Shown here one piece after another: positions 5,542 to 40,921 of a DNA stretch of 40,921 nucleotides; the stretch's first letter is position 1, and each line of letters opens with the position of its first letter. Made by a program: the position numbers and the translations under genes. Below the pieces are notes generated by a model, which made no database searches, was not told where the DNA came from, and saw nothing but the letters and a program-made list of their open reading frames with translations. The stretch is taken from positions 1 to 40,921 of the IMG/VR virus record IMGVR_UViG_2740892440_000004; one strand, given 5' to 3'. Origin of the DNA: a virus. Lineage: Duplodnaviria > Heunggongvirae > Uroviricota > Caudoviricetes.

Positions 5542-5702
5542 CCATCAACGAAAAAGCCACATCTGTGGGCTTTCATGTCACCAGGAGCCGCGGCTCCTTT
5601 GCGTATCCTTTTATGTCTCTTCACCGTCTGGTCGGTGTCCTGCTGAGACTGCTAACTTCCTGTTTTTATTGGTGTTGTCCTTATACCGTCCAATCATGAT
5701 TG

Positions 5703-5720
5703 GCTGGCGGAGTCTGAATT
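5703..5720. repeat. degenerate att-like repeat (gctggcggagtctgaatt); copy 2, probable distal boundary of the P4-like element
   Basis: near-identical to 1537-1554 and related to the tmRNA 3' end fragment at 18123-18167. Confidence 0.3.
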
Positions 5721-5878
5721 TGTATGTTATATCTATGTTTTAATTGGTTATTTATTTAAGTTGTTTTTGTTTGTATACCTAAGCGTATACCAATAGCGGG
5801 GTGCAATACTTATTGAACTTTAAAAAAATCACGCTAAATAGGTCTTCTATATTCAAAAAAACTCTTTTTTCAATAAAT

Positions 5879-5957
5879 TGTTCACACTGTTCACTTTGGA
5901 TTTTTACCATTCAAAATCAAGGAAATAGAAGTTAACTGTACGGTGAAGAGTGAACAG
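5879..5957. repeat. iteron-like octamer cluster (TGTTCACA, TGTTCACT, GGTGAAGA, GTGAACAG), possible P4 crr/ori-like alpha-binding region
   Basis: four copies of a TGTTCAC-type octamer in both orientations within 80 bp immediately beyond the 3' end of the alpha gene; recalled P4 ori/crr iteron is TGTTCACC. Confidence 0.35.
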
Positions 5958-5980
5958 ATAACTCTACATTCTTGTGCCAG

Positions 5981-6010
5981 CAAAAATAAAACCCGGCATC
6001 AGCCGGGTTA
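5981..6010 (-). terminator. rho-independent terminator downstream of the alpha operon
   Basis: perfect hairpin acccggc-atca-gccgggt followed on the minus strand by a T-run (plus-strand A-run 5982-5990). Confidence 0.5.
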
Positions 6011-6017
6011 GTTGTAA

Positions 6018-8351
6018 TTATTTGATTGTTGGCTCATCGCACTTGGGTAGCCAGTCTGCATTACTTTCCTCTTTTAAAGTGAGGTTAGTCTGCATTCCCT
6101 GATTAGTTCGCCGTTTCTCATAATGTAGCCCGTACTCCTTCAGCATGACTGGCAACCCTTTGCCAAACATCGTAAGACTCAGGGTGTTTTTATATCCATT
6201 AGCCTCCATGTATACGAGGTAGGCATGGTAAAGGTAGGTACGTGGCTGGCGTGGGACAATATTGGCGTTCCCCATAAACATGCCGTTGGTGTCAGGTAAT
6301 GCCTCAAGATAGCCACAAAAATCAAATGCTGGATCAGCATCACGCTTGATGGTGAGAGCCTCATCAGAATTCTGCTGCGACTGAAGCAATGTTCTGGCGC
6401 TCATCGGATCGCTGAAACGCTGCATGAGCTGGCGAACAATCACAGCCAGTTCTCGTGCAATTTTATCTTTCAGCTGCGGATCGCGTTCTTCCGGTGCTAT
6501 CTGCTCAGGAAAATGCAGAATAACTCTCCTGCGGGACACACCACCACTGCGATCAGTGAAGCGCATAGGATTATTATTTACGGCCAGGATAACCGCCGGA
6601 ATATGTGTTGAATAAGCATTCTGATATTTGGGGTCCACCGATACCGCATCGCCACCAGTTATAGCCTTAAGCCCGGCGCCGTCGCCGCTCCACTTCTCCT
6701 GATCAGGCAGGCGAATAAGAGAAAAACCTATCAGAGCCGCACGTTCTCGCGGGGACTCCAGCGTTTCAATGGTCGCAGAGGTGGCGTTATCCTCTCCAGC
6801 AAGCATGGTCGCAATTTCAGCCAGAATACTTTTGCCACTTCCACCAGGGCCAGTCACTTCCAGAAAGAGCTGCCAGTCATAGCGATTCGCCAGCACCATA
6901 AATAACGCCGCAAGAATAATGTCGCGTTTTTCTGGCTTGTGTCCGGCAGCCCGGTCCAGCCAGCGCCAGAATGCCGGGGCATGAGTTTCAAGCGTTTCCC
7001 CCTCTACCGGTGGCGTGAAATCGACTTCACACAGGGTACGCAGCCAGTTCTCTTTACAGTGCGGACTAAACAGCCCTGTTCGCGTATCGAGGACGCCATT
7101 ACGAAAACCGATCAGATGACGTGCCGGATTTTGCTGCTGCGGAACAATTAACTTTAATGTTTCCACCAGTGAAGCAATTTTTCCTGAGGAAAACGGTGCA
7201 CCGAGGCGCTGGAAAAGGGCTGCGACATCTCGGGCAAAATCTGACTGAGAAATCACTTTCCACGCTCCAGACTCGTAGCGGGATAAAAGCTGCCCGTTCG
7301 GATCAACCGCCAGTGCATCCCTGTAATGCTCCCGAACCCTCTGAGCTTTTTCGCTGACACTCATCGCTGTGAATTCTGCTTCACTCATTGTGTCGAAAGG
7401 ACTGGCGTTATGTGGCTTCAAAGCCTCAAGAATTGCCTTCCGGGTGGATTCCTCTCCGTATTGGGTAAGCGCATCATTCCAGTCACCAAAAACCGGTGGC
7501 AGCACAATGTCACACTGACACGCTTTTGCAGCAGTTTCAGCCCTGTTCTGGCCTGAACCATTCAGATCGCGGTCCGCTGCAATAATTAACTGATATCCCG
7601 GATACTTGTTATGGGCAACGCTGGCCAGAGAAAGAAAGTTGACCGACGAAAATGCCACCATGACGGCTTCTCCTGTCAGATGACGAATGGTAAGCGCCGT
7701 GGCGTAACCTTCCGCAATCCACATCCTTCTTACAGAACTCCCGCCCCCTTCTATCAGATGATAGGCCTCCTTAACCTGACCTCCTTTAAGAAAACACTTG
7801 CTACCATTGCCACTGATAAGCTGAATATTCACCAGTTCCCCGTCAGCGTTATAGAGCGGGACGATCAAATCACCGGGGTGGAACATCACCCCACCGGTTT
7901 TATGACCTGAAGTCAGCTCATGGCAAATATGCTCCGGGAAACCTTTATGTGTAAGATAAGTATTTCCGGCAGATTCACGCGAGACTTGCAGTAGTCGCGC
8001 GGCAAGTGCTGCTGCCGCCTGTTTCCCGCCATCTGTATCTGCGGTTGACGTCCAGACTCCAGAAGAGGCTGAAGACAGACTATGTGTCAGTCCATGTATC
8101 CTGTCTGCTGCTTCACTGATATCCACATTCAGTACCTTGCTGACAAGCGCTAAACCGTCCCCAGCCCCGCACTGGTTGCAGAACCATGTTCCACGTCCTT
8201 CCAGATCGTCGAAGCGAAAACGATCTTTACCGGCGCAGACCGGACAAGGCTGATGGCGATTTTTCAGTATGTTCATACCCAGCGCTGGCAAAATCCGCGC
8301 CCAGTGACCGCGGGCAGCCTTCACGGCCTGACTGACTTTCATTCCTGACAT
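6018..8351 (-). CDS. P4 alpha-type primase/helicase (replication protein)
   Basis: Zn-finger primase motif CPVCAGKDRFRFDDLEGRGTWFCNQCGAGDG, Walker A GPGGSGKS; approx. 777 aa; start set at the ATG preceded by GAGGGAG rather than the upstream alternative start in the ORF track. Confidence 0.9.
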   Translation of the reverse strand: MSGMKVSQAVKAARGHWARILPALGMNILKNRHQPCPVCAGKDRFRFDDLEGRGTWFCNQCGAGDGLALVSKVLNVDISEAADRIHGLTHSLSSASSGVWTSTADTDGGKQAAAALAARLLQVSRESAGNTYLTHKGFPEHICHELTSGHKTGGVMFHPGDLIVPLYNADGELVNIQLISGNGSKCFLKGGQVKEAYHLIEGGGSSVRRMWIAEGYATALTIRHLTGEAVMVAFSSVNFLSLASVAHNKYPGYQLIIAADRDLNGSGQNRAETAAKACQCDIVLPPVFGDWNDALTQYGEESTRKAILEALKPHNASPFDTMSEAEFTAMSVSEKAQRVREHYRDALAVDPNGQLLSRYESGAWKVISQSDFARDVAALFQRLGAPFSSGKIASLVETLKLIVPQQQNPARHLIGFRNGVLDTRTGLFSPHCKENWLRTLCEVDFTPPVEGETLETHAPAFWRWLDRAAGHKPEKRDIILAALFMVLANRYDWQLFLEVTGPGGSGKSILAEIATMLAGEDNATSATIETLESPRERAALIGFSLIRLPDQEKWSGDGAGLKAITGGDAVSVDPKYQNAYSTHIPAVILAVNNNPMRFTDRSGGVSRRRVILHFPEQIAPEERDPQLKDKIARELAVIVRQLMQRFSDPMSARTLLQSQQNSDEALTIKRDADPAFDFCGYLEALPDTNGMFMGNANIVPRQPRTYLYHAYLVYMEANGYKNTLSLTMFGKGLPVMLKEYGLHYEKRRTNQGMQTNLTLKEESNADWLPKCDEPTIK

Positions 8352-8365
8352 GATGCAGTTCTCCC

Positions 8366-8689
8366 TCAGTGTAAAACCGGCTTTATAATGTGACGGACGC
8401 ATAACTCATCCATTACGGCTATTCCGAGCTGGGAGAGTGCGGGGCAGGACATTAGAGGACCGGATTCCATCAGGTCTGAAAGCAGGGCGCAGGCGATTTC
8501 CATGCCTTTTGTTTGCCCGTGCTGTCGCAGATAAAAACCTTCAAGCTCACGGGCAATGGCGGTTTCAATTTCATCCAGAGTGAGCTGCAGGTGGCGGTTG
8601 TGCTGATGGCAGATACTCAGCCAGGCGCAGGCAACCGCGCGGCGATATAACGCCAGCCGAAGTGAGAGGGGAAGAGTGCGTGATTTCAT
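8366..8689 (-). CDS. hypothetical protein (107 aa) of the satellite early operon
   Basis: ORF whose start overlaps the upstream stop (ATGA) and whose end overlaps the alpha start. Confidence 0.5.
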
Positions 8690-8913
8690 TGCACCACCTC
8701 CTTGTTCATCAGGTCATCCTGGCAACGCTGTACCACGCCATCAAGCTGTTCTGTCATCAGATAAATCAGGGAAACCAGTTGCTCACATTGAGCACCTGCA
8801 GGTTTTTCATAGCAGTCCTGAAGAACAGCCATTCCGGTGACAAATTCCCCCACGTTACGAAGATGCTTGAGGCGGACAATATCGTCATAAGAAATTGCGG
8901 CGTGATTCATCAC
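8686..8913 (-). CDS. hypothetical protein (75 aa) of the satellite early operon
   Basis: ORF coupled by ATGA overlaps on both sides. Confidence 0.45.
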
Positions 8914-9101
8914 ATCACCTCCCCGGCAGGCAGCCGTGCAGAAAGGGAGAGCACATAATCACGGACCAGCGAAAGGCGTGCAAAGCGCTCATCGCAGGCC
9001 ACGGTGCGAAGCATACAGATGCGGGGTTGAGTGTCAGCACGGCGGATTGCGGCAAGCACAAAGACATATTGCGGGTAAAACGGGGTGAGGGTTGTAGCCA
9101 T
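8910..9101 (-). CDS. hypothetical small protein (approx. 63 aa); the longer 183-aa ORF in the track is probably not real
   Basis: GGAGG upstream of an internal ATG; the long version would span a terminator-like hairpin at 9308-9333. Confidence 0.3.
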
Positions 9102-9307
9102 GATGGCAGCCTCCATTGAGTAGCGGTTATTGCTACCACCGGAAACGCCAATTTCACTGGTGGCAGCCCGAACGGGGTTGGCGTAACCGGCCTCAATGGA
9201 TACCGGCCAGCCCGAAGGCTGCCCCGCCCGGACTGCCATTATCTCGAAAGAACCACGGTGTACGCATAAACACCACAGCCTGGAAAATGGGTGTGCCAGA
9301 GCTTCGA

Positions 9308-9333
9308 CGAAAAAAAAGACGCTTGGCGCGTCT
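9308..9333 (-). terminator. rho-independent terminator downstream of the alpA-like gene
   Basis: hairpin agacgc-ttggc-gcgtct followed on the minus strand by an 8-T run. Confidence 0.4.
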
Positions 9334-9460
9334 GGTGTCGCCATTGAGTTTCGCGGAACGCCAATTCCGGCTGCCGATTTTGCGGCAGCGGAAAAACTAT
9401 ACCTGGAAATGACTGCAGGATGCAAGCCAGAAAAATGGGGATTAATGCGTTCAGGCATCA

Positions 9461-9721
9461 TTATGCATCACATCCCCGTCCGCGGGCACTTATACGATCC
9501 GCCATCCATGCGCTTACCTCTGACTGTGCCCAGGCAACATTTTTACCACCAAGTGGGATCTGCTTCGGGAAAGCATCGCGGCTTATCAGGTCGTATATAG
9601 TTGAGCGGGACAAGCCGCATAAATGCATCACCTCGGGAAGACGTAAAAATCGCTCATGCTGGTTCAGCACAGGAAATAATGGCGCAGCCGGAGCTGGCGC
9701 AGAAACAGAAATATCATGCAT
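9461..9721 (-). CDS. alpA: AlpA-family prophage transcriptional regulator / excisionase-like DNA-binding protein
   Basis: 86 aa with HTH segment [39 protein letters not shown] characteristic of AlpA/Vis-type regulators of P4-like elements. Confidence 0.75.
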
Positions 9722-10283
9722 TTATCTACCCTCTTTAATTCCTTCATCAGTCCGGATAAATCCCCCCGGATTCAGGTAGTTCCTTATTATGTATATATTT
9801 CTCGCTTACGCACCCATTATTTATTTAGCGTCACATATTGATTTAATGGAATTTAAAACTATATCAAACCACATAAAATGGCATGATAGATATTATGTCT
9901 GCGAACTATAAATACAGGGACATTAATAGGAACTAACTTTCATCCAGGGGTTACTACCCCATAAGTCATAGAACTTAATGGTACTGAAACCGCAACCCAT
10001 TCAGCAGGGATGCACAATTTCTACATATGGCTTTACATTGCAAACCTAACTTCAGGATATACTCATGAATTGCATCAAGCTCAGAAGAATTAGAACCGCA
10101 TAAAATCAATAACCACGCATTCTTAACCTAAAAATATATCCAAATAAATTCATAAAAGACCGAGCAGTTCTAGTTTTATAAAAATCAGATTGAAATGCAA
10201 CACCAGGGAAAGGGGGGAATCATGTTATTTCCCGGCAAAGAAAAATCGTCTATTTCATCATCTGTTGAATACTACTGAAGAGT

Positions 10284-10480
10284 GGTGAATAGTTGTGAGG
10301 AACAATAATGAAATAATCATTCGGAATAAAAATTTCACTTTTGATGAAAAAAAATCATAAATCACGCTACCTTCCGATGAACACTCATGAACAGTCACTG
10401 AATACTGCCTTGTCAACCCTTCACCTCTTAACTAGCTGTATTATCAATTTTTTTATCAAAGTGAACAGTAGTGAATAGTA
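10284..10480. repeat. second iteron-like cluster (GGTGAATA, ATGAACAG, GGTGAAGG, GTGAACAG, GTGAATAG) in an AT-rich non-coding region; possible ori-like site
   Basis: at least five TGAAC/TA-type octamers in a 200-bp ORF-free segment about 4.4 kb from the cluster at 5879-5957. Confidence 0.3.
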
Positions 10481-10544
10481 TTTATTAAAGGAAAGTTGAA
10501 GATCAGACATGACACATTTCTCTGGCTAGCCAGAACAAGGTCAT

Positions 10545-10562
10545 TGTTCTGTCACTGACACA
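10545..10562 (+). promoter_or_regulatory. TGT-N12-ACA element (Ogr/Delta-dependent late promoter motif) upstream of the sid-like operon
   Basis: TGTTCTGTCACTGACACA about 75-90 bp upstream of the sid-like start, matching the P2/P4 late-activator site consensus. Confidence 0.5.
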
Positions 10563-10702
10563 ATCCCCCTCGGTAGTGCGCTTGTATGGGCATCGGCACA
10601 ATTGACACGACAACAAAACACTACCGGAGCATTCATGACTACTGTTAACCAGATCTCTGATGCAAACATTACATCCTCCCTCCCGCCGAAAATTCGCGAA
10701 GC

Positions 10703-11386
10703 GTGGAAAACGTTAAGGCAGCAAAAGCTGTCTGGCAGGAAGAACGGCGAAAACAAACTGAAGCTGCTGCAATGATTGAAACTATCCGTAAACGTCAGGA
10801 AGATACAAAAACGGAAACGCAGGCGCTTAATGATGAATGGCGAAACCTGTTTCGTGAGAATCAGGGAAATATGACACCACGCATGAAAAAACTGCGGGCA
10901 GAAATCGCCCTCGGACGCGAAACACTGGATGAGTTCGAAGATTTGCTGGCAGCTCAGGTGGCAGAAAATGAATTCCTGCCCTGGAAAACTGCGGATGCTG
11001 CAAACCACTACATCAGCGAACATAATCGCCTGATTGAAACTCATGCAGTGTGGCTCTGGAATGAGTTTATGAAGGAACACGGCCAGAAACTTATTCAGAT
11101 CCTTGGACTGTTGAAAATGACTCTGGGCCGAAGCGCTTCTGCTGTTATCGGTGTAGTTCATACCGTAAACGACCCCGAAAGTGTGCTGAAGCAATTTATC
11201 AGCGAGCAACTCACCACTCCGGCACTGTCCTGTAACGTATCTTCAACGGATGATATTACCCTGCCGGGGATCAGCATTTATGCGGACGATAAAGCCATCC
11301 AGGATGCCAGACAATCCCCCAGCCCTGCAGCGCGTTCACGGATGCTTAAACAGCGTGACATGGTTAAAGGGGGCGAGAAGAAATGA
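10703..11386 (+). CDS. putative Sid-like capsid size-determination (external scaffold) protein; probably starts at ATG 10635 with a frameshift near 10705
   Basis: first gene of a +strand operon followed by psu and delta; coiled-coil-like Glu/Arg/Ala-rich sequence; ATG 10635 has a GGAG RBS and reads into this frame if one base is restored. Confidence 0.45.
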   Translation: MENVKAAKAVWQEERRKQTEAAAMIETIRKRQEDTKTETQALNDEWRNLFRENQGNMTPRMKKLRAEIALGRETLDEFEDLLAAQVAENEFLPWKTADAANHYISEHNRLIETHAVWLWNEFMKEHGQKLIQILGLLKMTLGRSASAVIGVVHTVNDPESVLKQFISEQLTTPALSCNVSSTDDITLPGISIYADDKAIQDARQSPSPAARSRMLKQRDMVKGGEKK

Positions 11387-11937
11387 ATGCCGGAACCATT
11401 ACTCAGGAAGCTCTCAACGATTACCGCTCGGCGATAAAAAGCTGGCTGACACTACGTAATACGCAAAGTACCTACCAGCTTCGTCTGGCGGCTCTGCTGA
11501 ATACTGAAGAAAAACCGGCAGCATATGCCAGCCAGCTTGAGGAGCTTCGTGAGCGTCTTGCTGTCCTCGAATGGCAGATTAACTGTGCTGCACGGGATGG
11601 TCTTTATGCTCACCAGATTGTGCTGGAGAGTTGTGTTACAAGCGCAACGGAAAACTTCATGAGCGAGCATGGTGATGCACTCACTGACGCACTGGCTCCT
11701 TTTCTTTGCGCTCCATACGGGCTTGAGGCGGCAATGAAAATATTACGAACCGCTGTAGCCCGACAAACGGAAGTGCGTACTCCGGTAATTTCAGCAGCAT
11801 ACAAGAGCATTATCGACGAAACCGGATTAACGGTGGATGCATCAATGTACGCTGATGCTTCAACCAGTTTCACCCCGGCACAACATAAAGTTTTCCTGGC
11901 CCGCCTTAACCGACTTAATGAAAAAGGAGGGTACTGA
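11383..11937 (+). CDS. psu: Psu-like polarity suppression (capsid decoration) protein
   Basis: 184 aa; ATGA overlap with upstream gene; segments ...MSEHGDALTDALAPF... and ...FTPAQHKVF... resemble P4 Psu as recalled. Confidence 0.7.
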   Translation: MNAGTITQEALNDYRSAIKSWLTLRNTQSTYQLRLAALLNTEEKPAAYASQLEELRERLAVLEWQINCAARDGLYAHQIVLESCVTSATENFMSEHGDALTDALAPFLCAPYGLEAAMKILRTAVARQTEVRTPVISAAYKSIIDETGLTVDASMYADASTSFTPAQHKVFLARLNRLNEKGGY

Positions 11938-11938
11938 T

Positions 11939-12211
11939 ATGGCCCTGAAGTGTCCTGAATGTGGGACGGTCGCTCACGCCAGAACCAGCGCCTATGAAGC
12001 TCCATCGGTTAAACGCTCATGGTATCAGTGCCAGAATCTGGAATGTTCCTGCACATTTACCGCTCTGGAAAGCGTGGATACGATAATTATGAAGCCTTGG
12101 CGCAATGAACAGGAATCAGACAAAGAACAAATGCCAGAAAAACAACAGCAAACTCTCAACCGCTATGGCTCCGCGTCAAAGCTGTCAAGCCGTCAGCTAA
12201 TTCCTGTCTGA
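11939..12211 (+). CDS. Delta/Ogr-family zinc-finger late-gene activator
   Basis: MALKCPECGTVAHARTSAYEAPSVKRSWYQCQNLECSCTF matches the Ogr/Delta C-x2-C...C-x4-C pattern (CPxCxxxAHARTS...YxQCxN). Confidence 0.8.
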   Translation: MALKCPECGTVAHARTSAYEAPSVKRSWYQCQNLECSCTFTALESVDTIIMKPWRNEQESDKEQMPEKQQQTLNRYGSASKLSSRQLIPV

Positions 12212-12234
12212 TTAGCAAAATACGCCCACGTAGT

Positions 12235-33880: not shown

Positions 33881-34531
33881 ATGAGCCTGAGTCCCGCACG
33901 GCAGCATCGCCTGCGCGTTCAGGCTGAACAGGCCGCCCGTGAGGGCGGCAGTGTTCGCCACGCGTCGGGCTATGACCTGATGCTGCTGCAGCTGTCGGAA
34001 GACCGCCGCCGTCTCAAGGGCGTTCAGTCCACGGTGAAAAAAGCGGAAATAAAGGTGGAGCTGCTGCCGAAATATGCCGCCTGGGCGGAGGGCGTCCTGG
34101 CTGCCGGAGGCGCTCAACAGGATGACGTGCTGATGTACGTGATGCTGTGGCGCATTGATGCCGGAGATTATGCCGGGGCGCTGGAGATCGGGCGTCATGC
34201 CCTGCGTCATGGCTGGGTGATGCCTCTGGGTAACCGCAACGTGCAGACCGTGCTGGCAGAGGAAATGGCAGATGCAGCGCAGAGCGCAATGCTTGCCGCT
34301 ACCGGCTTTGATGCCGATCTGTTGCTGCAGACGCTGGAGCTGACAGACGGTCTGGATATGCCGGACCAGTCACGGGCGCGTCTGCATAAAGCGATTGGCG
34401 CTGTCCTGAGTGAAAGCAATCCGGCTTCCGCCCTTAATCATCTCAACCATGCGTTACAGCTCGATCCCCGCTGTGGCGTGAAAAAAGACAAACAGCAGCT
34501 GGAGCGCAGACTGCGCAATGACAGCCGCTGA
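33881..34531 (+). CDS. M: terminase small/endonuclease subunit (P2 gpM family)
   Basis: 216 aa following capsid gene. Confidence 0.75.
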   Translation: MSLSPARQHRLRVQAEQAAREGGSVRHASGYDLMLLQLSEDRRRLKGVQSTVKKAEIKVELLPKYAAWAEGVLAAGGAQQDDVLMYVMLWRIDAGDYAGALEIGRHALRHGWVMPLGNRNVQTVLAEEMADAAQSAMLAATGFDADLLLQTLELTDGLDMPDQSRARLHKAIGAVLSESNPASALNHLNHALQLDPRCGVKKDKQQLERRLRNDSR

Positions 34532-34626
34532 CAGAACGTGCCCCCGCGCACGGGCGGCACGGGGTGGCGAAAGGCATAGCCACATCAAAATCCCGTCCAC
34601 CGCCCTCTATTTCAGGAGAAAGCAGC

Positions 34627-35091
34627 ATGAAGTTTGTTGCGCCAGAACAGGCACCGGAACAGGCGGAAATCATCAGAAATACGCCGTTCTGGCCTGATGT
34701 GGACCTGTCGGAGTTTCGCAGCGTGATGCGCACTGACGGCACGGTGACGCAGCCGCGTTTAAAGCAGGTTGCCCTGTCGGCAATTTCGGAGGTCAACGCA
34801 GAGCTGTATGAGTTTCGCAGACGTCAGCAGATGCTGGGATATGTGTCGCTGGCTGAGGTTCCGGCGGAACAGCTGGACGGCAAAAGTGAGCGCATTCAGC
34901 ACTATTTCAACGCGGTTTACTGCTGGGCACGCGCCATGCTCAACGAACGATACCAGGACTATGACGCCACGGCGTCCGGTGTGAAGCGGGGCGAGGAACT
35001 GGCGGAAGCCAGCGGTGATTTGTGGCGTGACGCCCGCTGGGCCATCAGCCGGGTGCAGGACGCGCCGCACTGCACAGTGGAGCTTATCTGA
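34627..35091 (+). CDS. L: head completion/stabilisation protein (P2 gpL family)
   Basis: AGGAG RBS then ATG 34627; 154 aa. Confidence 0.75.
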   Translation: MKFVAPEQAPEQAEIIRNTPFWPDVDLSEFRSVMRTDGTVTQPRLKQVALSAISEVNAELYEFRRRQQMLGYVSLAEVPAEQLDGKSERIQHYFNAVYCWARAMLNERYQDYDATASGVKRGEELAEASGDLWRDARWAISRVQDAPHCTVELI

Positions 35092-35294
35092 TGAAAGTGC
35101 GTGCGCATCAGTATGACACGGTGGACGCGCTTTGCTGGCGTCATTACGGGCGCACGCAGGGTGTCACGGAGCAGGTACTGAAGGCAAATCCGGGGCTTGC
35201 CGAATACGGCCCCTTTTTACCTCACGGGCTGCAGGTGGAGCTGCCGGACATTCCGACCACCACCACCGTGCAGACCGTCCAGCTATGGGACTGA
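35091..35294 (+). CDS. X: tail protein X (P2 gpX family)
   Basis: 67 aa, ATGA overlap with L. Confidence 0.75.
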   Translation: MKVRAHQYDTVDALCWRHYGRTQGVTEQVLKANPGLAEYGPFLPHGLQVELPDIPTTTTVQTVQLWD

Positions 35295-35297
35295 ATT

Positions 35298-35513
35298 ATG
35301 ACGCTTGAGCGAATCAGCGCCTTTATCACGTATTGCATCGCCGTCGTGCTGGCCTGGCTGGGCGATTTGTCCATCAAGGATGCCTCAACGCTGGGCGGCC
35401 TGATGATTGGTGTGCTGATGCTGGCTATCAACTGGTACTACAAACATAAAGCCTACCAGCTTCTGCGCGACGGGCAGATCTCGCGGGAGGACTATGAATC
35501 CATCAATCGTTAA
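35298..35513 (+). CDS. holin-like small membrane protein
   Basis: 71 aa with two hydrophobic helices and charged C-terminus, immediately upstream of the lysozyme gene. Confidence 0.6.
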   Translation: MTLERISAFITYCIAVVLAWLGDLSIKDASTLGGLMIGVLMLAINWYYKHKAYQLLRDGQISREDYESINR

Positions 35514-36005
35514 ACGCTGCCTTGTCGGGGCCGTGCTGGCTATTACTGCCACGCTGCCGGGTTTTCAGCAGCTTCACACCTCCGTGGAGGGGCTGAAACT
35601 GATTGCTGATTACGAAGCTGTCGTCTGCAGCCGTATCAGTGCAGCGCGGGTGTCTGGACCGACGGCATTGGTAATACGTCGGGCGTCATTCCCGGCAAAA
35701 CCATTACGGAGCGACAGGCAGCAGAAGGGCTGATCTCCAACGTGCTGCGTGTGGAGCGGGCGCTGGAAAGGTGTGTGAAGCAACAGCCGCCGCAGAAGGT
35801 GTATGACGCTGCGGTGTCGTTTGCCTTCAACGTGGGAACGGGCAATGCCTGCAGTTCCACACTGGTGAAATTACTCAATCAGCGGCGCTGGGCGGATGCG
35901 TGCCGACAGTTGCCGCGCTGGGTTTATGTGAAAGGTGTTTTTAATCAGGGGCTGGATAACCGCCGTGCGCGGGAGATGGCCTGGTGCTTACAGGGAGCAA
36001 ACTGA
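35494..36005 (+). pseudogene. endolysin (T4-lysozyme-like, GH24), frameshifted at about 35620
   Basis: third frame restores the lysozyme catalytic region YEG-CRLQPYQCSAGVWTDGIGNT; frame as sequenced stops at 35733; one G missing in gaa-g-ctgt. Confidence 0.8.
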
Positions 36006-36006
36006 A

Positions 36007-36384
36007 ATGAAAAAGAAAGTAATCAGCGGGCTGTTTCTGATGTTATGGATGGCGCTGTTGATCGCAGCAATGGTGTATCCGCAGGGGATTTTTCCGGTAC
36101 TGGCAGCGTCCGGTGTCTGGGTAGCCTGTCTGCTGACATGGGCGGTAATTCCGGTAGCACTGGCTGCGTCAATTAAGAACGGCCCGCTCTGGCAGGAGTT
36201 GAGGGCATCTTTGCTAAAGACCATTACCCGAAAAGAAAACGTATTTATCAGCTGGGTGATGCGATTGCTGATTGTCGTAAGTTTCGCCTGGACGGGGTGG
36301 GCTATTACCCTGGTCTTTTATCTGCTGACCGTTATTGCCTTCTGGATGATCCGTAATCAGATTGCGCAACAGGTAGCAGCATGA
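36007..36384 (+). CDS. LysA-like membrane protein (lysis timing)
   Basis: 125 aa with four hydrophobic segments, position after lysozyme. Confidence 0.6.
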   Translation: MKKKVISGLFLMLWMALLIAAMVYPQGIFPVLAASGVWVACLLTWAVIPVALAASIKNGPLWQELRASLLKTITRKENVFISWVMRLLIVVSFAWTGWAITLVFYLLTVIAFWMIRNQIAQQVAA

Positions 36385-36809
36385 ACCGGTTGCTGCTGGT
36401 TGTGCTGGCGTTATTACTGGCGGCGCTGGGCTGGCAGACGTGGCGGCTGGCTGATGCCAGCCAGACCATCAGCACGCAGGCAGACGAGCTTCGGAGCAAA
36501 AGCCAGGCACTGGCAAAGAGCAACAGCCAGCTTATCAGCCTGTCCATTCTGACTGAAACCAACAACCGGGAGCAGGCGCGGCTCTACGCCGAAGCAGAAC
36601 AGACCAGCGCACTGCTGAGACAACGACAACGCCGGATGGAGGAACTGAAACGTGAGAACGAGGATTTACGCCGCTGGGCTGATACTCCTTTGCCTGCTGA
36701 CATTATCCGGCTGCGGGAACGTCCGGCACTCACCGGAGGTGCAGCTTACCGTCAGTGGTTGTCCGCGAGTGACGCCGTGTCGGCTGGAGCAGGCAGCGCC
36801 GCGCACTAA
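36381..36809 (+). CDS. LysB / Rz-like inner-membrane spanin
   Basis: 142 aa; N-terminal TM helix then coiled-coil-like region. Confidence 0.7.
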   Translation: MNRLLLVVLALLLAALGWQTWRLADASQTISTQADELRSKSQALAKSNSQLISLSILTETNNREQARLYAEAEQTSALLRQRQRRMEELKRENEDLRRWADTPLPADIIRLRERPALTGGAAYRQWLSASDAVSAGAGSAAH

Positions 36810-36942
36810 CGGTGATCTGAACGCATTGCTGGATGAAACGGAGGTCGCCTGGGCGGTCTGTGCAGACAAAGTGGACATGATTATTGCGTGTCAGGAGCGA
36901 AACAGTGAACAAACCACAATCCCTGCGCCACGCCCTCAATAA
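36652..36942 (+). CDS. LysC / Rz1-like outer-membrane lipoprotein spanin, embedded in and extending beyond lysB
   Basis: GGAGG RBS then GTG; lipobox LTLSGC; alternative frame overlapping lysB. Confidence 0.55.
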   Translation: MRTRIYAAGLILLCLLTLSGCGNVRHSPEVQLTVSGCPRVTPCRLEQAAPRTNGDLNALLDETEVAWAVCADKVDMIIACQERNSEQTTIPAPRPQ

Positions 36943-37336
36943 AGCGGTACCTTATGTCCGCAATAACCCGGACAAACTGCATCTGTTTGTGGATAACGGT
37001 TCGCTGGTTGCCACGGGGGCCAGCTCCATGTCATGGGAGTACCGCTATACCCTGAACGTGGTGATAGAGGATTTCAGCGGCGACCAGAATCTGCTGATGG
37101 CCCCGGTTTTGCTGTGGCTTCGGGATAACCAGCCCGATGCCATCAATAACCCGGCGTTACGGGAAAAGCTATTCACCTTTGAGGTGGATATTTTGCGCAA
37201 CGATGTCTGTGATATCAGCCTTAACCTGCAATTGACGGAACGTGTGCTGGTCAGTACTGACGGCAGTGTGTCGAGTGTTGAAGCTGTAGCAGAACCCGAT
37301 GAACCTGAAGAAATGTGGACGGTGAAACGTGGCTGA
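36905..37336 (+). CDS. R: tail completion protein (P2 gpR family)
   Basis: AGGAG RBS then GTG 36905; approx. 143 aa. Confidence 0.7.
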   Translation: MNKPQSLRHALNKAVPYVRNNPDKLHLFVDNGSLVATGASSMSWEYRYTLNVVIEDFSGDQNLLMAPVLLWLRDNQPDAINNPALREKLFTFEVDILRNDVCDISLNLQLTERVLVSTDGSVSSVEAVAEPDEPEEMWTVKRG

Positions 37337-37775
37337 ACTGCAGAAGGTGGACGACTGGCTGAGTGCCTTGCTGGCGAATCTGGAGCCAGCCGCAAGAAGC
37401 CGCATGATGCGCCAGCTGGCGCAGGAACTGCGCCGGACACAGCAGCAGAATATCAGGATGCAGCGCAATCCAGATGGCAGCAGTTATGAACCGCGCAGGG
37501 TAACAGCACGTAGCAAGAAGGGGCGCATCAAACGTCAGATGTTTGCAAAGCTGCGCACCACAAAATACCTGAAAACTGCCGCCAGCGCCGACTCTGCCAG
37601 CGTACAGTTTGAAGGCAAGGTGCAGCGTATTGCCCGTGTTCACCATTACGGCCTGCGTGATCGCGTCAGTCGCAAAGGACCGGAAGTCCGTTACGCAGAG
37701 CGCCGCCTGCTGGGTGTAAATGATGATGTTGAGGCAATGACCCGCGACATGATTCTGCAATGGCTGGCGGGGTGA
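37329..37775 (+). CDS. S: tail completion protein (P2 gpS family)
   Basis: 148 aa overlapping R stop. Confidence 0.75.
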   Translation: MAELQKVDDWLSALLANLEPAARSRMMRQLAQELRRTQQQNIRMQRNPDGSSYEPRRVTARSKKGRIKRQMFAKLRTTKYLKTAASADSASVQFEGKVQRIARVHHYGLRDRVSRKGPEVRYAERRLLGVNDDVEAMTRDMILQWLAG

Positions 37776-37779: not shown

Positions 37780-37797
37780 TGTATCAGCACTGATACA
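37780..37797 (+). promoter_or_regulatory. TGT-N12-ACA late-promoter activator site upstream of gene V
   Basis: TGTATCAGCACTGATACA, a perfect dyad, 47 bp upstream of the V start. Confidence 0.55.
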
Positions 37798-37843
37798 AGT
37801 TGCAGCACTGCCGCCTTTCTTCCCCTGATGGCAACCTTTCCCT

Positions 37844-38422
37844 ATGAACGCACAATTAACCGAAATCATGCGCCTTATCACCAACCTGATCCGCACAGGT
37901 ATAGTCACCGAAGTGGATCGGGAGAACTGGCTTTGCCGGGTGAAAACGGGCGACCTCGAAACCAACTGGATCAGCTGGCTGACACTGCGTGCCGGGAATG
38001 CCCGGACATGGTGGCGACCATCGGAAGGTGAGCAGGTGGTGCTGCTGAGTCTGGGCGGAAATCTGGAAACAGCCTTTGCGCTGCCCGCTGTCTATTCGAA
38101 TCAGTTTGCACCGCCGTCGACGTCGGCGGACGCCTGCGTGACAGAACATCCTGACGGTGGCTGGTTTGAATATGAACCCGCCACCGGGCGCTGGTATGTC
38201 AGGGGCATCAAATCAATGGTCATTGAGGCCGCTGATAACATCACCATGAAAACCAGTGAGTTTGTACTGGAGGCTGACCGCACGCGCATTAACAGCGAAG
38301 TGGTGATCAATGGTGGCGTTACCCAGGGCGGCGGAGCGATGAGTTCTAACGGGATTGTGGTTGATGCACATCAGCATACTGGCGTCCTGAAAGGCGGCGA
38401 CACAACCGGAGGCCCGGTATGA
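37844..38422 (+). CDS. V: baseplate spike protein (P2 gpV family)
   Basis: 192 aa; conserved ...TWWRPSEGEQVVLLSLGGNLETAFALPAVYS... and C-terminal HQHTG. Confidence 0.8.
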   Translation: MNAQLTEIMRLITNLIRTGIVTEVDRENWLCRVKTGDLETNWISWLTLRAGNARTWWRPSEGEQVVLLSLGGNLETAFALPAVYSNQFAPPSTSADACVTEHPDGGWFEYEPATGRWYVRGIKSMVIEAADNITMKTSEFVLEADRTRINSEVVINGGVTQGGGAMSSNGIVVDAHQHTGVLKGGDTTGGPV

Positions 38423-38778
38423 CGCTTTATAGCGGGATGAACAATACCAGCGGTAAAGCCATTACTGATATTGACCATCTGCGCCAGTCGGTGCGGGACA
38501 TTTTGCTGACGCCGCAGGGTAGCCGCATTGCCCGTCGGGAATATGGTTCCCTGCTGTCGGCACTGATAGACCAGCCACAAAATCCGGCATTACGCCTGCA
38601 GGTCATGTCGGCAGTGTATGTGGCGCTGAGTCGCTGGGAGCCACGGCTGACGCTGGATTCCATCACCATTAACAGCAATTTTGACGGTTCAATGGTGGTG
38701 GAGCTGACCGGGCGGCGTAATAACGGTGTGCCTGTTTCCCTTTCCGTATCAACAGGAGCAGAGAATGGCAGTGATTGA
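38419..38778 (+). CDS. W: baseplate wedge protein (P2 gpW / gp25-like)
   Basis: 119 aa overlapping V stop. Confidence 0.8.
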   Translation: MTLYSGMNNTSGKAITDIDHLRQSVRDILLTPQGSRIARREYGSLLSALIDQPQNPALRLQVMSAVYVALSRWEPRLTLDSITINSNFDGSMVVELTGRRNNGVPVSLSVSTGAENGSD

Positions 38779-39673
38779 CCTTTCGCAGTTGCCTGCGCCG
38801 CAGATTGTCGATGTGCCGGACTTTGAGACGCTGCTTGCCGAACGCAAGGCCGAATTTGTTGCGCTTCATCCGAAAGATGAGCAGGAAGCAGTGATCCGCA
38901 CGCTGGAACTGGAATCTGAACCCGTCACCAAATTGCTGCAAGAGAACGCTTATCGTGAGCTGCTTCTGCGCCAGCGCATTAACGAAGCCGCGCAGGCGGT
39001 GATGGTGGCTTATGCGATGGGCGGCGATCTGGACCAGCTCGCCGCCAATTACAACGTGAAACGCCTGACGGTGATACCTGCTGATGATGACGCTGTGCCG
39101 CCCGTTGCGGCTGTGATGGAAAGCGATGAAGCGTTACGCCTGCGTGTGCCTGCAGCCTTTGAGGGGCTTTCAGTTGCGGGGCCAACTGCAGCTTATGAAT
39201 TTCATGCCCGAAGCGCCGACGGTCGGGTGGCGGATGCCAGTGCAACCAGTCCGGCCCCTGCAGAGGTGGTGCTGACTGTCCTGAGTCGCGAAGGCGACGG
39301 AACAGCAGAAAAAGACCTGCTGGATGTGGTGGAGAACGCCCTGAACAGTGAGAACGTCCGCCCGGTGGCTGACCGTCTGACGGTTCGCAGCGCAGAAATC
39401 ATCCCGTACCGCGTGGAAGCCACCATTTTTCTCTATCCGGGACCGGAAGCAGAGCCGGTAATGGCAGCGGCAAAAGCCAGTCTGCAGAAGTACATCGCCA
39501 GTCAGACGCGTCTTGGCCGGGATATTCGCCGTAGCGCCATCTTTGCCGCCCTGCATGTTGAGGGTGTGCAGCGTGTGGAGCTGGCTTCGCCGCTGGCGGA
39601 TGTGGTCCTGAACAAAACACAGGCGGCATCATGTACGCAGTGGAGCGTAACCAACGGAGGAACGGATGAATAG
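38765..39673 (+). CDS. J: baseplate protein J (P2 gpJ family)
   Basis: ATG 38765; approx. 302 aa. Confidence 0.8.
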   Translation: MAVIDLSQLPAPQIVDVPDFETLLAERKAEFVALHPKDEQEAVIRTLELESEPVTKLLQENAYRELLLRQRINEAAQAVMVAYAMGGDLDQLAANYNVKRLTVIPADDDAVPPVAAVMESDEALRLRVPAAFEGLSVAGPTAAYEFHARSADGRVADASATSPAPAEVVLTVLSREGDGTAEKDLLDVVENALNSENVRPVADRLTVRSAEIIPYRVEATIFLYPGPEAEPVMAAAKASLQKYIASQTRLGRDIRRSAIFAALHVEGVQRVELASPLADVVLNKTQAASCTQWSVTNGGTDE

Positions 39674-40271
39674 TCTGCTGCCACCGGGTTCAACTTCACT
39701 GGAGCGCCGACTGGCGCAAACCTGCAGCGGGATTTCTGATTTGCAGGTGCCGCTGCGTGACTTGTGGAATCCAACGACCTGTCCGGTCAGTTTCCTGCCT
39801 TATCTCGCCTGGGCGTTCTCTGTGGATCGCTGGGACGAGGACTGGACGGAAAGTGTCAAACGCCAGGTGGTGAAGGATGCTTTTTATATTCATCAGCATA
39901 AAGGAACCACCAGTGCCGTGCGGCGGGTAGTGGAACCGTTCGGCTTCCTGATCCGCATTATTGAGTGGTGGCAGACCGGAGAAACACCAGGCACGTTTCG
40001 CCTGGATATCGGCGTGCAGGATCAGGGCATCACTGAAGATACCTATCTGGAACTTGAGCGACTGATAAGCGATGCCAAACCCTGCAGCCGTCACATGATC
40101 GGCATGTCCATCAATCTGCAGACCAGCGGCCCGCATTGGGTGGGAGCCGCCAGTTATCTTGGCGAAGAAATCACGATCTATCCGTATATCAACGAAACAA
40201 TTATTTCCGGCGGCACCGCGCATGAAGGCGGGGCGGTCCATGTTATTGACACAATGAGAGTGAATCCATGA
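39666..40271 (+). CDS. I: baseplate/tail protein I (P2 gpI family)
   Basis: 201 aa overlapping J stop. Confidence 0.75.
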   Translation: MNSLLPPGSTSLERRLAQTCSGISDLQVPLRDLWNPTTCPVSFLPYLAWAFSVDRWDEDWTESVKRQVVKDAFYIHQHKGTTSAVRRVVEPFGFLIRIIEWWQTGETPGTFRLDIGVQDQGITEDTYLELERLISDAKPCSRHMIGMSINLQTSGPHWVGAASYLGEEITIYPYINETIISGGTAHEGGAVHVIDTMRVNP

Positions 40272-40921
40272 GCACAAAATTTTATACCCTGCTGACGGAT
40301 ATTGGCGCGGCGAAACTTGCCAGCGCCGCCGCGCTCGGTGTGCCTTTAAAAATTACCCATATGGCGGTCGGCGATGGCGGCGGAACATTACCAACGCCGG
40401 GCGCAAAGCAGACAGCACTGGTAAATGAGAAACGCCGGGCTGCGCTGAATATGCTCTATATCGACCCGCAGAACAGCAGCCAGATTATTGCTGAACAGGT
40501 GATCCCTGAAAACGAGGGCGGTTGGTGGATACGTGAAGTGGGCTTGTTTGATGAGTCCGGGGCATTGATTGCCGTGGGTAACTGCCCGGAAAGCTATAAG
40601 CCGCAACTGGCTGAAGGCAGTGGGCGTACCCAGACCGTGCGCATGGTGCTGATTACCAGTAGTACGGACAATATCATCCTGAAAATCGACCCTGCTGTAG
40701 TGCTGGCAACCCGCAAGTATGTGGATGACAAAATATCAGAGCACGAACAGTCACGACGTCACCCGGACGCCTCGCTGACTGCAAAAGGTTTTACTCAGTT
40801 AAGCAGTGCGACCAACAGTGAATCCGAAATACTGGCCGCAACACCGAAGGCTGTGAAGGTGCATATGATCTTGCAGCAGGTAAAGCATCCGCCAGTCACA
40901 CACACCCGTGGAATCAGATAA
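40268..40921 (+). pseudogene. H: tail fibre protein (P2 gpH family) N-terminal part; frameshifted at about 40850 and cut by the window end
   Basis: N-terminus MSTKFYTLLTDIGAAKLASAA...MAVGDGGG...EHEQSRRHPDASLTAKGFTQLSSATNS typical of P2-like fibres; after ...AATPKAVK the frame runs to a stop, while the +2 frame continues GAYDLAAGKASASHTHPW. Confidence 0.75.

Follow-up and report, generated by a model that had tools for sequence, protein, structure and literature searches.

Does a P4-like satellite that lies directly beside a P2-family prophage have its own helper as a neighbour, or do the two merely share an insertion site? The question is raised by a window of 40,921 nt, the whole stretch of DNA analysed here, in which a head-to-tail pair of independent integrative elements occupies the region downstream of the E. 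coli ssrA gene (tmRNA); the window reads towards ssrA. The satellite, which is P4-like, spans approximately 5703-18122 and is about 12.4 kb (12,427 bp). Its neighbour, a P2-family prophage whose switch is of the 186 type, has a total size of approximately 34.6 kb; the window ends inside the tail-fibre gene H, and the ogr/B gene and tail genes fall outside it. Each element brings an integrase and an ssrA 3'-end copy of its own. The structural identification of both is close to certain. That this particular prophage could serve as helper for this satellite has slightly better than an even chance, and the best overall explanation, which takes the structure together with this prophage as helper, is judged quite likely.

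The boundaries are marked by the following features.

1469-1552, unstranded, relic of an earlier insertion, matched by BLAST to the prophage-end/ssrA junction of strain 1-62
5703-5718, unstranded, satellite distal (left) att GCTGGCGGAGTCTGAA, a 16-nt degenerate copy of the ssrA 3' end that marks the left boundary
5773-5795, unstranded, left-arm integrase arm-type repeat GTATACCTAAGCGTATACCAATA, a 91% direct repeat with 17992-18014
17960-18122, unstranded, satellite att arm, with arm-type repeats at 17960-18014
18123-18167, minus strand, 45-nt copy of the ssrA (tmRNA) 3' end, TGGTGGAGCTGGCGGGAGTTGAACCCGCGTCCGAAATTCCTACAT, a unique exact match in the window (0 expected by chance)

The 45-nt copy does double duty, serving the satellite as proximal att and the prophage as distal att, and two complete E. 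coli genomes have exactly these letters at the 3' end of their intact ssrA. The first-pass annotation had placed a 186/P2-like prophage beside a P4-like satellite at the ssrA 3' end, in tandem and with nothing but this copy between them, and every tested element of that description was correct. No intact tmRNA or tRNA was found within the window. In strain CV839-06, which lacks the satellite, the same left flank runs on as ssrA-like GCTGGCGGGAGTTGAA. The left-arm repeat also forms an inverted 14-mer with 17960-17973. Directly downstream of the 45-nt copy, on the minus strand, is a terminator-like hairpin (18058-18092; fold -29.3 kcal/mol, z = -3.4) whose stem runs into UUUUUU. The relic consists of approximately 62 nt resembling the right end of a P2-like prophage, followed by a degenerate ssrA 3' end TGTTGAGCTGGCGGTGTCTGAA. 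Base-calling in the window shows signs of being imperfect and a 45-nt repeat could mislead an assembler, but an identical junction, extending 180 nt into the satellite arm and 85 nt into the prophage arm, is present in about 20 independent complete genomes, and an assembly mis-join at repeated ssrA 3' sequence is extremely improbable.

The satellite carries these features.

5879-5957, unstranded, crr-like cluster of alpha-type iterons (TGTTCACA, TGTTCACT, GGTGAAGA, AGTGAACA), the densest in the window
6018-8402, minus strand, alpha primase-helicase (Pfam Zn_Ribbon_Prim, Toprim_3, D5_N, DUF5906, Pox_D5), 74% identical to P4 alpha
8366-8689, minus strand, DUF5375 protein, homologue of P4 orf106 (PF17345, 5.7e-48; 69% identical)
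8686-8913, minus strand, 75-aa ORF where P4 has epsilon/orf151
8910-9461, minus strand, Ash-family / P4 'cI ORF' region (PF10554, 1.2e-29)
9156-9243, within that region, CI (C4-family) immunity RNA (Rfam C4, 84.6 bits)
9312-9389, within the same region, isrK-like RNA (Rfam isrK, 76.7 bits)
9461-9721, minus strand, AlpA/Vis-type excisionase-regulator (PF05930, 6.4e-20; 72% identical to P4 orf88)
10545-10562 and 10583-10600, plus strand, two TGT-N12-ACA operators of a Psid-type late promoter, 38 nt apart
~10635-11386, plus strand, Sid-family capsid-size determination gene (phrog_6165), frameshifted by a 1-nt deletion at 10702
11383-11937, plus strand, Psu, capsid decoration / Rho antagonist family (PF07455, 2e-35; phrog_6366, 1.3e-73)
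11939-12211, plus strand, Delta, a single-domain Ogr/Delta zinc-finger late activator of 90 aa (PF04606, 1.7e-16)
12292-12445, plus strand, cos region with candidate cohesive-end core GGCGGGCGGGGCAGCGCAC at 12421-12439
12637-16161, plus strand, Hachiman defence cassette in the P4 psu-int hotspot (GC 0.35)
12637-13578, plus strand, hamA (PADLOC HamA, 9.5e-136)
13580-16161, plus strand, hamB (PADLOC HamB, E=0), frameshifted at 15504
16254-16711, minus strand, 152-aa hypothetical gene (phrog_19013), frameshifted at 16465
16741-17940, minus strand, P4-type tyrosine integrase (Pfam Arm-DNA-bind_3, Phage_int_M, Phage_integrase), 36% identical to P4 Int

All items of the P4-type module listed in the first-pass annotation (alpha, AlpA, sid-like/psu/delta, a cos-like site and a P4-type int) are in place. 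Its term "complete-looking" holds for gene content but not for the sequence as it stands, in which sid, hamB and the small ORF are broken by single-base deletions. In P4 the crr, with the annotated type-1 repeat TGTTCACC, is likewise directly downstream of alpha, and Rfam finds the C4 and isrK pair in the same order. The intact sid copy of a relative matches phrog_6165 at 1.3e-94, the same PHROG as P4 Sid (6e-116). Delta shares 47% identity with 186 B and 31% with P4 Delta, to both halves of which it aligns. The 75-aa ORF was rejected as epsilon, as it matches phrog_10110 and P4 epsilon phrog_10016, and BLASTP against P4 epsilon and orf151 gave no match. No homologue of the epsilon derepressor was found in the satellite by PHROG profile and BLASTP comparison; the satellite therefore probably awaits induction of a helper or superinfection instead of forcing it.

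The prophage portion of the window comprises the following.

18253-19314, minus strand, membrane-anchored cargo protein of 353 aa in the att-int slot (GC 0.31)
19314-20332, minus strand, P2/186-type integrase, frameshifted at 20152; 53-61% identical to 186 Int, in two frames
20334-22078, unstranded, 186-type lysis-lysogeny switch (CI, Apl-like, CII, Fil)
20334-20966, minus strand, CI (Pfam Phage_CI_repr, Phage_CI_C), 33% identical to 186 CI
21086-21328, plus strand, Apl-like, 30% identical to 186 Apl
21361-21870, plus strand, CII, 69% identical to 186 CII
21878-22078, plus strand, Fil, 82% identical to 186 Fil
22042-26175, plus strand, early operon of DUF5347, DUF2732, TraR/DksA, Dam methylase and A (annotation of the near-identical CV839-06)
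23762-26175, plus strand, replication endonuclease A, frameshifted at 25361
26270-26761, plus strand, SOS module of LexA box, 62-aa ORF and DinI/Tum-like gene
26528-26761, plus strand, DinI/Tum-like gene (Pfam DinI, 6.6e-23)
26840-26990, plus strand, cos region with core GGCGTGGCGGGGATACGAG at 26966-26984
27132-29005, plus strand, three-gene cargo cassette (231, 215 and 173 aa) in the cos-proximal gpA-gpQ hotspot (GC 0.35)
29036-30063, minus strand, portal Q, 61% identical to the 186 homologue, frameshifted at 29438
30060-31826, minus strand, terminase ATPase P, 63% identical to the 186 homologue
31873-31890, unstranded, late-activator site TGTGTGGTTGTCGGTACA, common to the divergent P and O operons
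31969-37775, plus strand, late operon of O scaffold, N capsid, M small terminase, L, X, holin, lysozyme (frameshifted at 35616), lysis genes, R and S
37780-37797, unstranded, TGT-N12-ACA site TGTATCAGCACTGATACA before baseplate gene V
37844-40921, plus strand, baseplate and tail-fibre genes V, W, J and I, then the first part of H, which the window end truncates and in which 1 nt is deleted at 40859

The LexA box CTGTAAATATAAACAG (26270-26285) is the only one in the window and directly precedes the Tum-like operon, whose DinI/Tum-like product shares 41% identity with 186 Tum over the C-terminal half of the latter. Since a Tum-like anti-repressor operon lies under LexA, the prophage is probably SOS-inducible.

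If the frameshifts were true, neither element would be able to finish a cycle, and both could be decaying, immobile remnants retained as defence islands. The broken genes fit such decay: sid, hamB and the small ORF in the satellite, and int, A, Q, K/lysozyme and H in the prophage. This explanation is nevertheless unlikely. The 11 one- or two-base indel events relative to close relatives are all deletions, with 0 insertions, and in each a G or C was lost from a short G/C run; their density varies little, with 2 over 5.7 kb of chromosomal flank, 4 over 12.4 kb of satellite and 5 over 22.8 kb of prophage; and the broken ORFs are intact in every relative. Because of this pattern, the deletions look like systematic sequencing or assembly errors. 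Moreover hamB, the presumed cause of retention, is itself broken.

The signals that the two elements have in common bear on whether the prophage could act as helper. The first Psid site begins 90 nt upstream of the sid ATG. P4 has its sites at 9493/9531 and sid at 9583, with the same spacing and register, and the two pairs align without gaps. The prophage site between P and O aligns with the annotated activator-binding site of P2 (3057-3087) and with the B site of 186. TGT-N12-ACA occurs 7 times in the window vs 10.7 expected, which is not above chance, and 5 of the 7 sites are packed into late-promoter DNA that totals approximately 320 nt (Poisson p ~3e-8). The satellite cos region is collinear with those of the prophage, P4 and 186. 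Earlier claims of the element before the sid operon, before O/P and before V, and of a cos-like site in the satellite, are borne out by the aligned operators and the collinear cos region. Compatibility is supported by the operators that the late promoters have in common, by the collinearity at cos and by the presence of a Sid-family gene, and "potential helper" is a fair term.

The cos regions also bear on a rival reading, in which the neighbour is not the cognate helper, is adjacent only through ssrA targeting, and any mobiliser would be another P2-family phage with a terminase matching the satellite cos core. The satellite and prophage regions are 66% identical, below the 71% of the P4/186 pair, and the 19-nt cores differ, the T at position 5 being missing from that of the satellite and the last 7 nt being changed. 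The first 13 nt of the prophage core equal the 186 cos; the exact P2/P4 cos 19-mer is absent from the window, even allowing 3 mismatches. The satellite is also 99.9% conserved beside differing prophage variants or none, and co-occurs with the prophage just ~2.7-fold over independence, a value not corrected for phylogeny. On the other side, cos-flanking motifs such as GGTGCATGAAAACCA are common to satellite and prophage and differ in P4 and 186, and the two elements have the same late-promoter operators. P4 tolerates cos and helper variation, and 186 is an established P4 helper. A non-cognate neighbour is a minority possibility, though the weightiest of the alternatives.

The satellite is read as silencing itself through its P4-type CI RNA, replicating by means of alpha at the ori/crr iterons and excising through its P4-type integrase and AlpA. 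If the prophage is the helper, DNA damage would lift LexA, the Tum-like protein would inactivate the prophage CI, lytic growth would follow, and the Ogr/B activator made would turn on satellite Psid. Delta may in return boost the prophage late promoters through the same operator, Sid would steer the prophage capsid protein into small heads, and the prophage terminase would cut the satellite at cos and package it.

The exact layout is already known from public E. coli genomes. The first-pass annotation had overlooked this, as it had the many gene-breaking 1-nt deletions, the missing epsilon homologue and the divergence of the cos cores. The complete genome of strain 1-62 has the same tandem, in which the ogr-side end of the prophage is followed by intact ssrA and then smpB; in CV839-06 the prophage is alone at ssrA, with intact ssrA after its right end; and strain F95 has an independent tandem with a different satellite. 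Among 5426 genomes the tandem junction is found in about 20, whereas satellite-type arms adjoin intact ssrA in 385 instances and prophage arms adjoin the flank in 95, giving an odds ratio of ~2.7 vs independence (Fisher p = 4e-4, with narrow junction definitions, shared ancestry ignored and counts not phylogeny-corrected). About 11 of the 18 genomes carrying this satellite have it at ssrA without a prophage.

Such enrichment, and the recurrence of the tandem with different satellites and prophage variants, could mean that adjacency is selected and couples satellite to helper in cis, perhaps through amplification of the satellite as the induced prophage replicates in situ, through excisionase cross-talk or through cos-to-cos packaging of the 14.5-kb interval. 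The two cos sites are equally oriented and 14,545 bp apart, and a satellite without epsilon depends on helper induction. Selection for adjacency is, however, very doubtful. P4/P2 interactions act in trans. The enrichment is small, and this satellite type is mostly at ssrA without a prophage (385 vs 20). The 14.5-kb interval also exceeds the small-head capacity of ~12 kb (PMC9122126). Adjacency is best explained as a by-product of two integrases that hit overlapping parts of the ssrA 3' end, with no functional requirement; the layout is an ordinary, recurrent outcome of two known elements with the same insertion site, and arrays of this tandem kind have been recognised as a class at tDNAs (PMC4383910).

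In both elements low-GC anti-phage cargo adjoins the cos site; the satellite has the Hachiman cassette there, the prophage its uncharacterised genes. The suggestion of dual defence islands was right, and the class is already documented: Rousset et al. 2022 (PMC9122126) described both the P4 and P2 hotspots for defence cargo, and their P4-hotspot table includes DUF1837+helicase cassettes. The uncharacterised prophage cargo genes are the freshest lead. The 353-aa protein has no match in Pfam, NCBIfam, PADLOC or PDB, and its att-int slot is occupied in relatives by dCTP deaminase or GapS1. The three-gene cassette has no family match in searches including Pfam and PADLOC; its first gene is entered as 'hypothetical' in the P2-hotspot table (PMC9122126), and the cassette is kept as a unit as far as Acinetobacter.

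The window is E. coli DNA from downstream of ssrA, read toward that gene. A 45-mer, TGGTGGAGCTGGCGGGAGTTGAACCCGCGTCCGAAATTCCTACAT, occurs in it as a single copy (none is expected by chance) and is the reverse complement of the final 45 nt of the intact ssrA carried by two E. coli comparison genomes, strains 1-62 and CV839-06. This match to the 3′ end means that ssrA, on the minus strand, lies beyond the right edge of the window and that the DNA from about 5703 rightward is inserted. No tRNA or tmRNA gene was found within the window by ARAGORN or Rfam; intact ssrA-smpB comes after the prophage in both strains.

Features of the flank and the satellite ends
1–5700: ypjCB and the autotransporter gene ypjA; 99.8–99.9% identity to this flank as it stands in complete E. 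coli genomes
5703–5718: left core of the satellite, GCTGGCGGAGTCTGAA, a 16-nt degenerate ssrA fragment
5773–5795 and 17960–18014: integrase arm-type repeats at the satellite boundaries
18058–18092, minus strand: hairpin and U6 in the satellite arm, directly past the ssrA 3′ copy
18123–18167: the 45-nt copy of the ssrA 3′ end

By the Islander criterion both insertions have an integrase of their own and a correctly oriented ssrA fragment, the satellite the 16-nt fragment at 5703–5718 and the prophage the 45-nt fragment at 18123–18167. From core to core the satellite measures 12,427 bp, 107% of P4 (11,624 bp). Its size suits a small head (~12 kb). A genome free of the satellite has the ssrA-like GCTGGCGGGAGTTGAA at the left-core position. 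A 45-nt copy at the satellite's left end was also considered and is absent, that end carrying just the 16-nt degenerate core, which was found by comparison with CV839-06.

The hairpin and U6 of the satellite arm would be expected in an element that normally sits right behind ssrA. A hairpin with a U-run also lies directly past the ssrA 3′ end at the ssrA-proximal end of the prophage (46540–46593 in L003, a genome with intact ssrA). With hairpins in both, each element would supply its own replacement ssrA terminator. Further out in the flank is a relic junction (1469–1552), in which a degenerate ssrA 3′ end, TGTTGAGCTGGCGGTGTCTGAA, comes after ~62 nt that resemble a P2-like prophage at its ssrA-proximal end. 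The right half of the junction is similar to the satellite-type core at 5703–5718. This suggests that the ypjA-bearing segment (1553–5702) is itself an old island and the locus a four-layer array; the ssrA locus has, judging from the relic, been used repeatedly.

The genes of the satellite were called with Pfam, PHROGs and PADLOC.

Genes and RNAs of the satellite
6018–8402, minus strand: alpha primase-helicase, Pfam domains; 74% identity to P4 alpha
Between alpha and the 75-aa ORF: DUF5375 protein, counterpart of P4 orf106; 69% identity
8686–8913, minus strand: 75-aa ORF, phrog_10110, in the position of P4 epsilon/orf151
9156–9243: C4-family RNA, Rfam 84.6 bits
9312–9389: isrK-like RNA, Rfam 76.7 bits
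Within the satellite: Ash-family ORF; 68% identity to the P4 cI region
9461–9721: AlpA/Vis, PF05930; 72% identity to P4 Vis
~10635–11386: Sid-family gene; the intact orthologue in L001, a related E. coli sequence, matches phrog_6165 at 1.3e-94
11383–11937: Psu, PF07455 at 2e-35; 28% identity to P4 Psu
11939–12211: Ogr/Delta protein, 90 aa, single domain, PF04606 at 1.7e-16
12637–16161: HamA and HamB (Hachiman); PADLOC HamA 9.5e-136, HamB E = 0 on the intact orthologue
Between HamB and the integrase: 152-aa ORF
16741–17940: P4-type tyrosine integrase with Arm-DNA-bind_3, Phage_int_M and Phage_integrase domains; 36% identity to P4

The satellite shares with P4 (NC_001609) the order, counted from att, of alpha, orf106/DUF5375, the CI RNA region, AlpA/Vis and Psid with the sid operon, followed by cos, a cargo hotspot and int. 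The C4 family of Rfam includes the P4 CI immunity RNA, and P4 scanned in the same way gives C4 and isrK matches in the same order and strand. P4-type iterons (TGTTCAC-) cluster directly downstream of alpha, where P4 has crr. P4 Sid matches the same phrog_6165 (6e-116), and its kinship to the satellite Sid is visible by profile only. No capsid or tail homologue was found within 5703–18122. Searched by megablast against a phage collection, the satellite yielded matches limited to the ssrA/att end and scraps, because its DNA sequence and that of P4 have drifted too far apart.

There are also differences from P4. The late operon reads sid-psu-delta here but sid-delta-psu in P4. P4 Delta is a double-domain protein of 166 aa, whereas the 90-aa Delta of the satellite has one domain, which aligns with both halves of the P4 protein and is nearer to 186 B (47%). 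The P4 integrase has leuX as its target; that of the satellite targets ssrA. The att site of P4 is annotated in NC_001609. P4 carries gop-beta-cII as cargo and the satellite Hachiman, in which HamA (DUF1837) adjoins the helicase HamB. P4 also has epsilon and orf151, for which tblastn, BLASTP and PHROGs gave no homologues in the satellite; P4 epsilon is phrog_10016, and the ORF in its place here is phrog_10110. Against the core set of P4-like elements, int, psu, delta, sid, alpA, epsilon and alpha (Moura de Sousa and Rocha, 2021), the satellite would count as a six-of-seven variant with epsilon missing. The 75-aa ORF at 8686–8913 could be an alternative anti-repressor against a 186-type CI, or unrelated.

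To the right of the 45-nt copy, from 18168 to the window end, lies a P2-family phage with a 186-type switch.

Features of the prophage
18253–19314, minus strand: 353-aa cargo gene
Integrase: 53–61% identity to 186 Int
CI: Phage_CI_repr and Phage_CI_C domains; 33% identity to 186
Apl-like gene: 30% identity to 186 Apl
CII: 69% identity to 186 CII
Fil: 82% identity to 186 Fil
Early operon: Dam methylase and replication gene A
26270–26285: LexA box CTGTAAATATAAACAG, the sole one in the window; a 62-aa ORF and a DinI/Tum-like gene lie directly downstream
27132–29005: three-gene cargo cassette (231/215/173 aa)
Portal and terminase: 61–63% identity to 186
Scaffold, capsid, small terminase, lysis and baseplate genes: capsid 60% identity to 186
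37780–37797: TGT-N12-ACA site before V
Window end: start of tail-fibre gene H

In common with 186 (NC_001317, Eganvirus) the prophage has the CI-Apl-CII-Fil switch, a LexA-boxed Tum/DinI-like operon after A, P2-type morphogenesis synteny and an integrase beside att. The Q-P/O-N-M-L... V-W-J-I-H order is conserved at 45–63% identity to 186, the sheath-to-D genes and ogr lying beyond the window. The placement of the LexA box and the Tum-like gene corresponds to that of the SOS-controlled tum operon in 186, and the prophage is probably SOS-inducible. Unlike 186, it has the Tum-like function split between ORFs of 62 and 77 aa. Other differences are the site of integration (tRNA-Ile for 186, ssrA here), the Dam methylase, the cargo slots between att and int and beside cos, and capsid and terminase just ~60% identical. 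From the identities of CI and Apl the two phages are likely heteroimmune. The DNA adenine methylase is encoded at 22908–23765, where 186 has other non-essential genes. A 98%-identical prophage of ~34.6 kb is present alone at the ssrA site of CV839-06, where it ends with D, ogr and small cargo before intact ssrA-smpB. No second Ogr/B homologue was found within the window; relatives have one at the ssrA-proximal end. The structural proposal of the first-pass annotation, a P4-like satellite beside a 186/P2-like prophage at ssrA, holds.

Compared with near-identical relatives, the record has 11 indel events, all of them deletions, and all with G/C lost in short G/C runs, often after AAG (2215, 5556, 10702, 15504, 16465, 18069, 20152, 25361, 29438, 35616 and 40859). 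They break sid (1 nt at 10702), hamB (1 nt at 15504) and an ORF in the satellite, and, by 1 nt each, int, A, Q, lysozyme and H in the prophage. If the deletions were real, satellite and prophage would both be dead. The broken genes are intact in all relatives, and the density of deletions is similar across chromosomal flank, satellite and prophage; from its sequence pattern this looks like a systematic error of the source record, made in sequencing, base-calling or assembly.

The first-pass annotation had also noted a TGT-N12-ACA element shared by the two late regions, and this was borne out, with Psid in P4 register and a prophage site aligned to P2 and 186. Enrichment over the window as a whole was rejected, as 7 matches were found and 10.7 expected; the information is in position and register alone. 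Late-promoter DNA amounting to ~320 nt contains five of the seven (Poisson p ~3e-8). The satellite Psid sites (10545 and 10583) are 38 nt apart, the first 90 nt before the sid ATG. P4 has the identical geometry (sites at 9493 and 9531, sid at 9583), and a three-way alignment of Psid from the satellite, P4 and a second satellite is gap-free. The prophage site at 31873–31890 aligns to the annotated activator-binding site of P2 and to the 186 B site. The centres of the activator sites (31815–31832, 31873–31890 and 37780–37797) are separated from the ATGs annotated for P and V by just ~55 nt. By the P2 rule (site at −55) the P and V transcripts would be almost leaderless, or the true starts lie further downstream. 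The extra match at 31815–31832, which runs into the start codon of P, may be due to chance.

A cos-like site had been suggested for the satellite as well. A collinear cos region is indeed present, placed by comparison with the prophage, P4 and 186, but the P2/P4 19-mer is absent from the window even with 3 mismatches allowed. The cos regions of satellite and prophage are collinear and both contain repeated GCATG-type motifs; over ~155 nt, identity is 66% for satellite and prophage, 59% for satellite and P4, and 71% for P4 and 186. The prophage core, GGCGTGGCGGGGATACGAG, is the same as that of 186 in its first 13 nt. The satellite core, GGCGGGCGGGGCAGCGCAC (12421–12439), has one T missing and a different 3′ part; at 19 nt it differs from the cores of P2/P4, 186 and the adjoining prophage, and its flanking motifs are shared. 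With collinear regions and diverged cores, compatibility of the satellite cos with that of the prophage is plausible.

A helper role of the prophage for the satellite is likewise plausible on these comparisons. In the likeliest working model, in which the proteins act as their homologues do, the prophage would be SOS-induced via its Tum-like protein, Ogr/B would activate the satellite Psid, and Delta would act reciprocally. The P4-type integrase and AlpA would excise the satellite, alpha would drive its replication, Sid would direct the formation of small capsids, and the terminase would cut the satellite cos. The target of epsilon in P4 is the C repressor of P2, and among P2-like phages those other than 186 are not UV-inducible (PMC1904268 and references therein). 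Lacking epsilon, the satellite is not expected to derepress a 186-type CI alone. The locus shows cleanly, in a natural setting, a P4-type satellite beside a phage of its own helper family. Unlike the textbook P2/P4 pair, it combines a 186-type, probably SOS-inducible phage with a satellite that has no epsilon. Such strains would be convenient for studying how satellites of this sort sense helper induction and whether diverged cos cores limit helper range.

An assembly mis-join at the tandem junction was rejected, since the junction is found in ~20 complete genomes. Of 5426 complete E. coli genomes, 18 have the satellite itself at full length and 99.9% identity, and in ~7 of these a P2-like arm comes next instead of intact ssrA. 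The tandem junction (satellite-type arm, 45 nt, prophage arm) occurs in 20 genomes, a satellite-type arm directly at intact ssrA in 385, and a prophage arm directly at the flank in 95, which gives an odds ratio for tandems of 2.7 (Fisher p = 4e-4) that ignores shared ancestry and uses narrow junction definitions. These numbers show the layout to be recurrent but rare, and it is mostly what would be expected of two elements with one target. Integration of the satellite first or of the prophage first would both yield the junctions seen. In F95 an independent tandem pairs another P4-like satellite with another variant of the prophage; in TOK-001 the integrase alone remains of the satellite.

It might be argued that tandem residence is not accidental, and that an epsilon-less satellite gains, through cis effects, from residence beside an SOS-inducible 186-type helper, the two forming a linked helper-satellite-defence unit. 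The cis routes would be in-situ replication, excisionase cross-talk and packaging of the 14.5-kb cos-to-cos interval, which carries Hachiman and both integrases. We consider this reading improbable. Helper-embedded PICIs are also physically linked to a helper-type prophage, but they sit inside a late gene of the helper and are cis-regulated, whereas the satellite here lies outside the prophage at a shared bacterial att site, and no cis link was found (PMC10111431).

The layout illustrates the stacking of mobile elements at ssrA. Tandem island arrays at the tmRNA gene were reportedly described by Williams in 2003 in "Traffic at the tmRNA gene". Islander documents arrays at tRNA and tmRNA genes, among which the tmRNA gene shows the strongest enrichment as a target (PMC4383910), and P4-like elements have been observed close to large prophages (PMC8628076). 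[quoted passage not shown] Both element classes and their hotspots are documented already, as is tandem insertion at tmRNA genes, and current understanding is unchanged: the tandem is a new instance of well-known kinds, already in public genomes.

Rousset et al. (2022; PMC9122126) described defence hotspots adjacent to cos, which occupy the psu-int interval of P4-like elements and the gpA-gpQ interval of P2-like phages. Hachiman, between the end of the sid operon with cos and int, and the variable low-GC genes of the prophage between gpA and gpQ conform to this. The tables of that study list DUF1837 and helicase cassettes in the P4 hotspot, and the first gene of the prophage cassette as 'hypothetical'. 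In contrast to that study, a single chromosome segment here carries both hotspots, at a distance of 14.5 kb. The att-int slot adds a third one of the variable or defence kind and falls outside the published E. coli analysis of P2 hotspots; in related ssrA prophages it holds a dCTP deaminase (CV839-06), GapS1 (TOK-001) or other unknown genes. Three variable cargo slots lie within 17 kb (Hachiman, att-int and cos-proximal).

Two of these slots contain uncharacterised genes, which are reasonable candidates for new defence functions. Neither the cassette nor the 353-aa protein had a match in Pfam, NCBIfam, PADLOC or PDB sequence searches, and a structure search gave matches for cassette gene 1 at the fold level only. 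The 353-aa protein (GC 0.31) has N-terminal membrane helices and a confident AF2 model (pLDDT 85), for which a PDB fold search found no structural relative; every one of its 81 homologues is listed as 'hypothetical' and comes from Enterobacterales. The cassette stays together as a unit in Erwinia and in a P2-like fragment, and also in the chromosome of an Acinetobacter baumannii, where it is not part of a prophage. It may be a new anti-phage system, and so may the 353-aa membrane protein. The cos site directly adjoins the portal gene in P2 and 186; here the prophage cos (26966–26984) is ~2 kb from portal Q (29036), with the cassette between them, and in the F95 and TOK-001 relatives cargo flanks cos on both sides.
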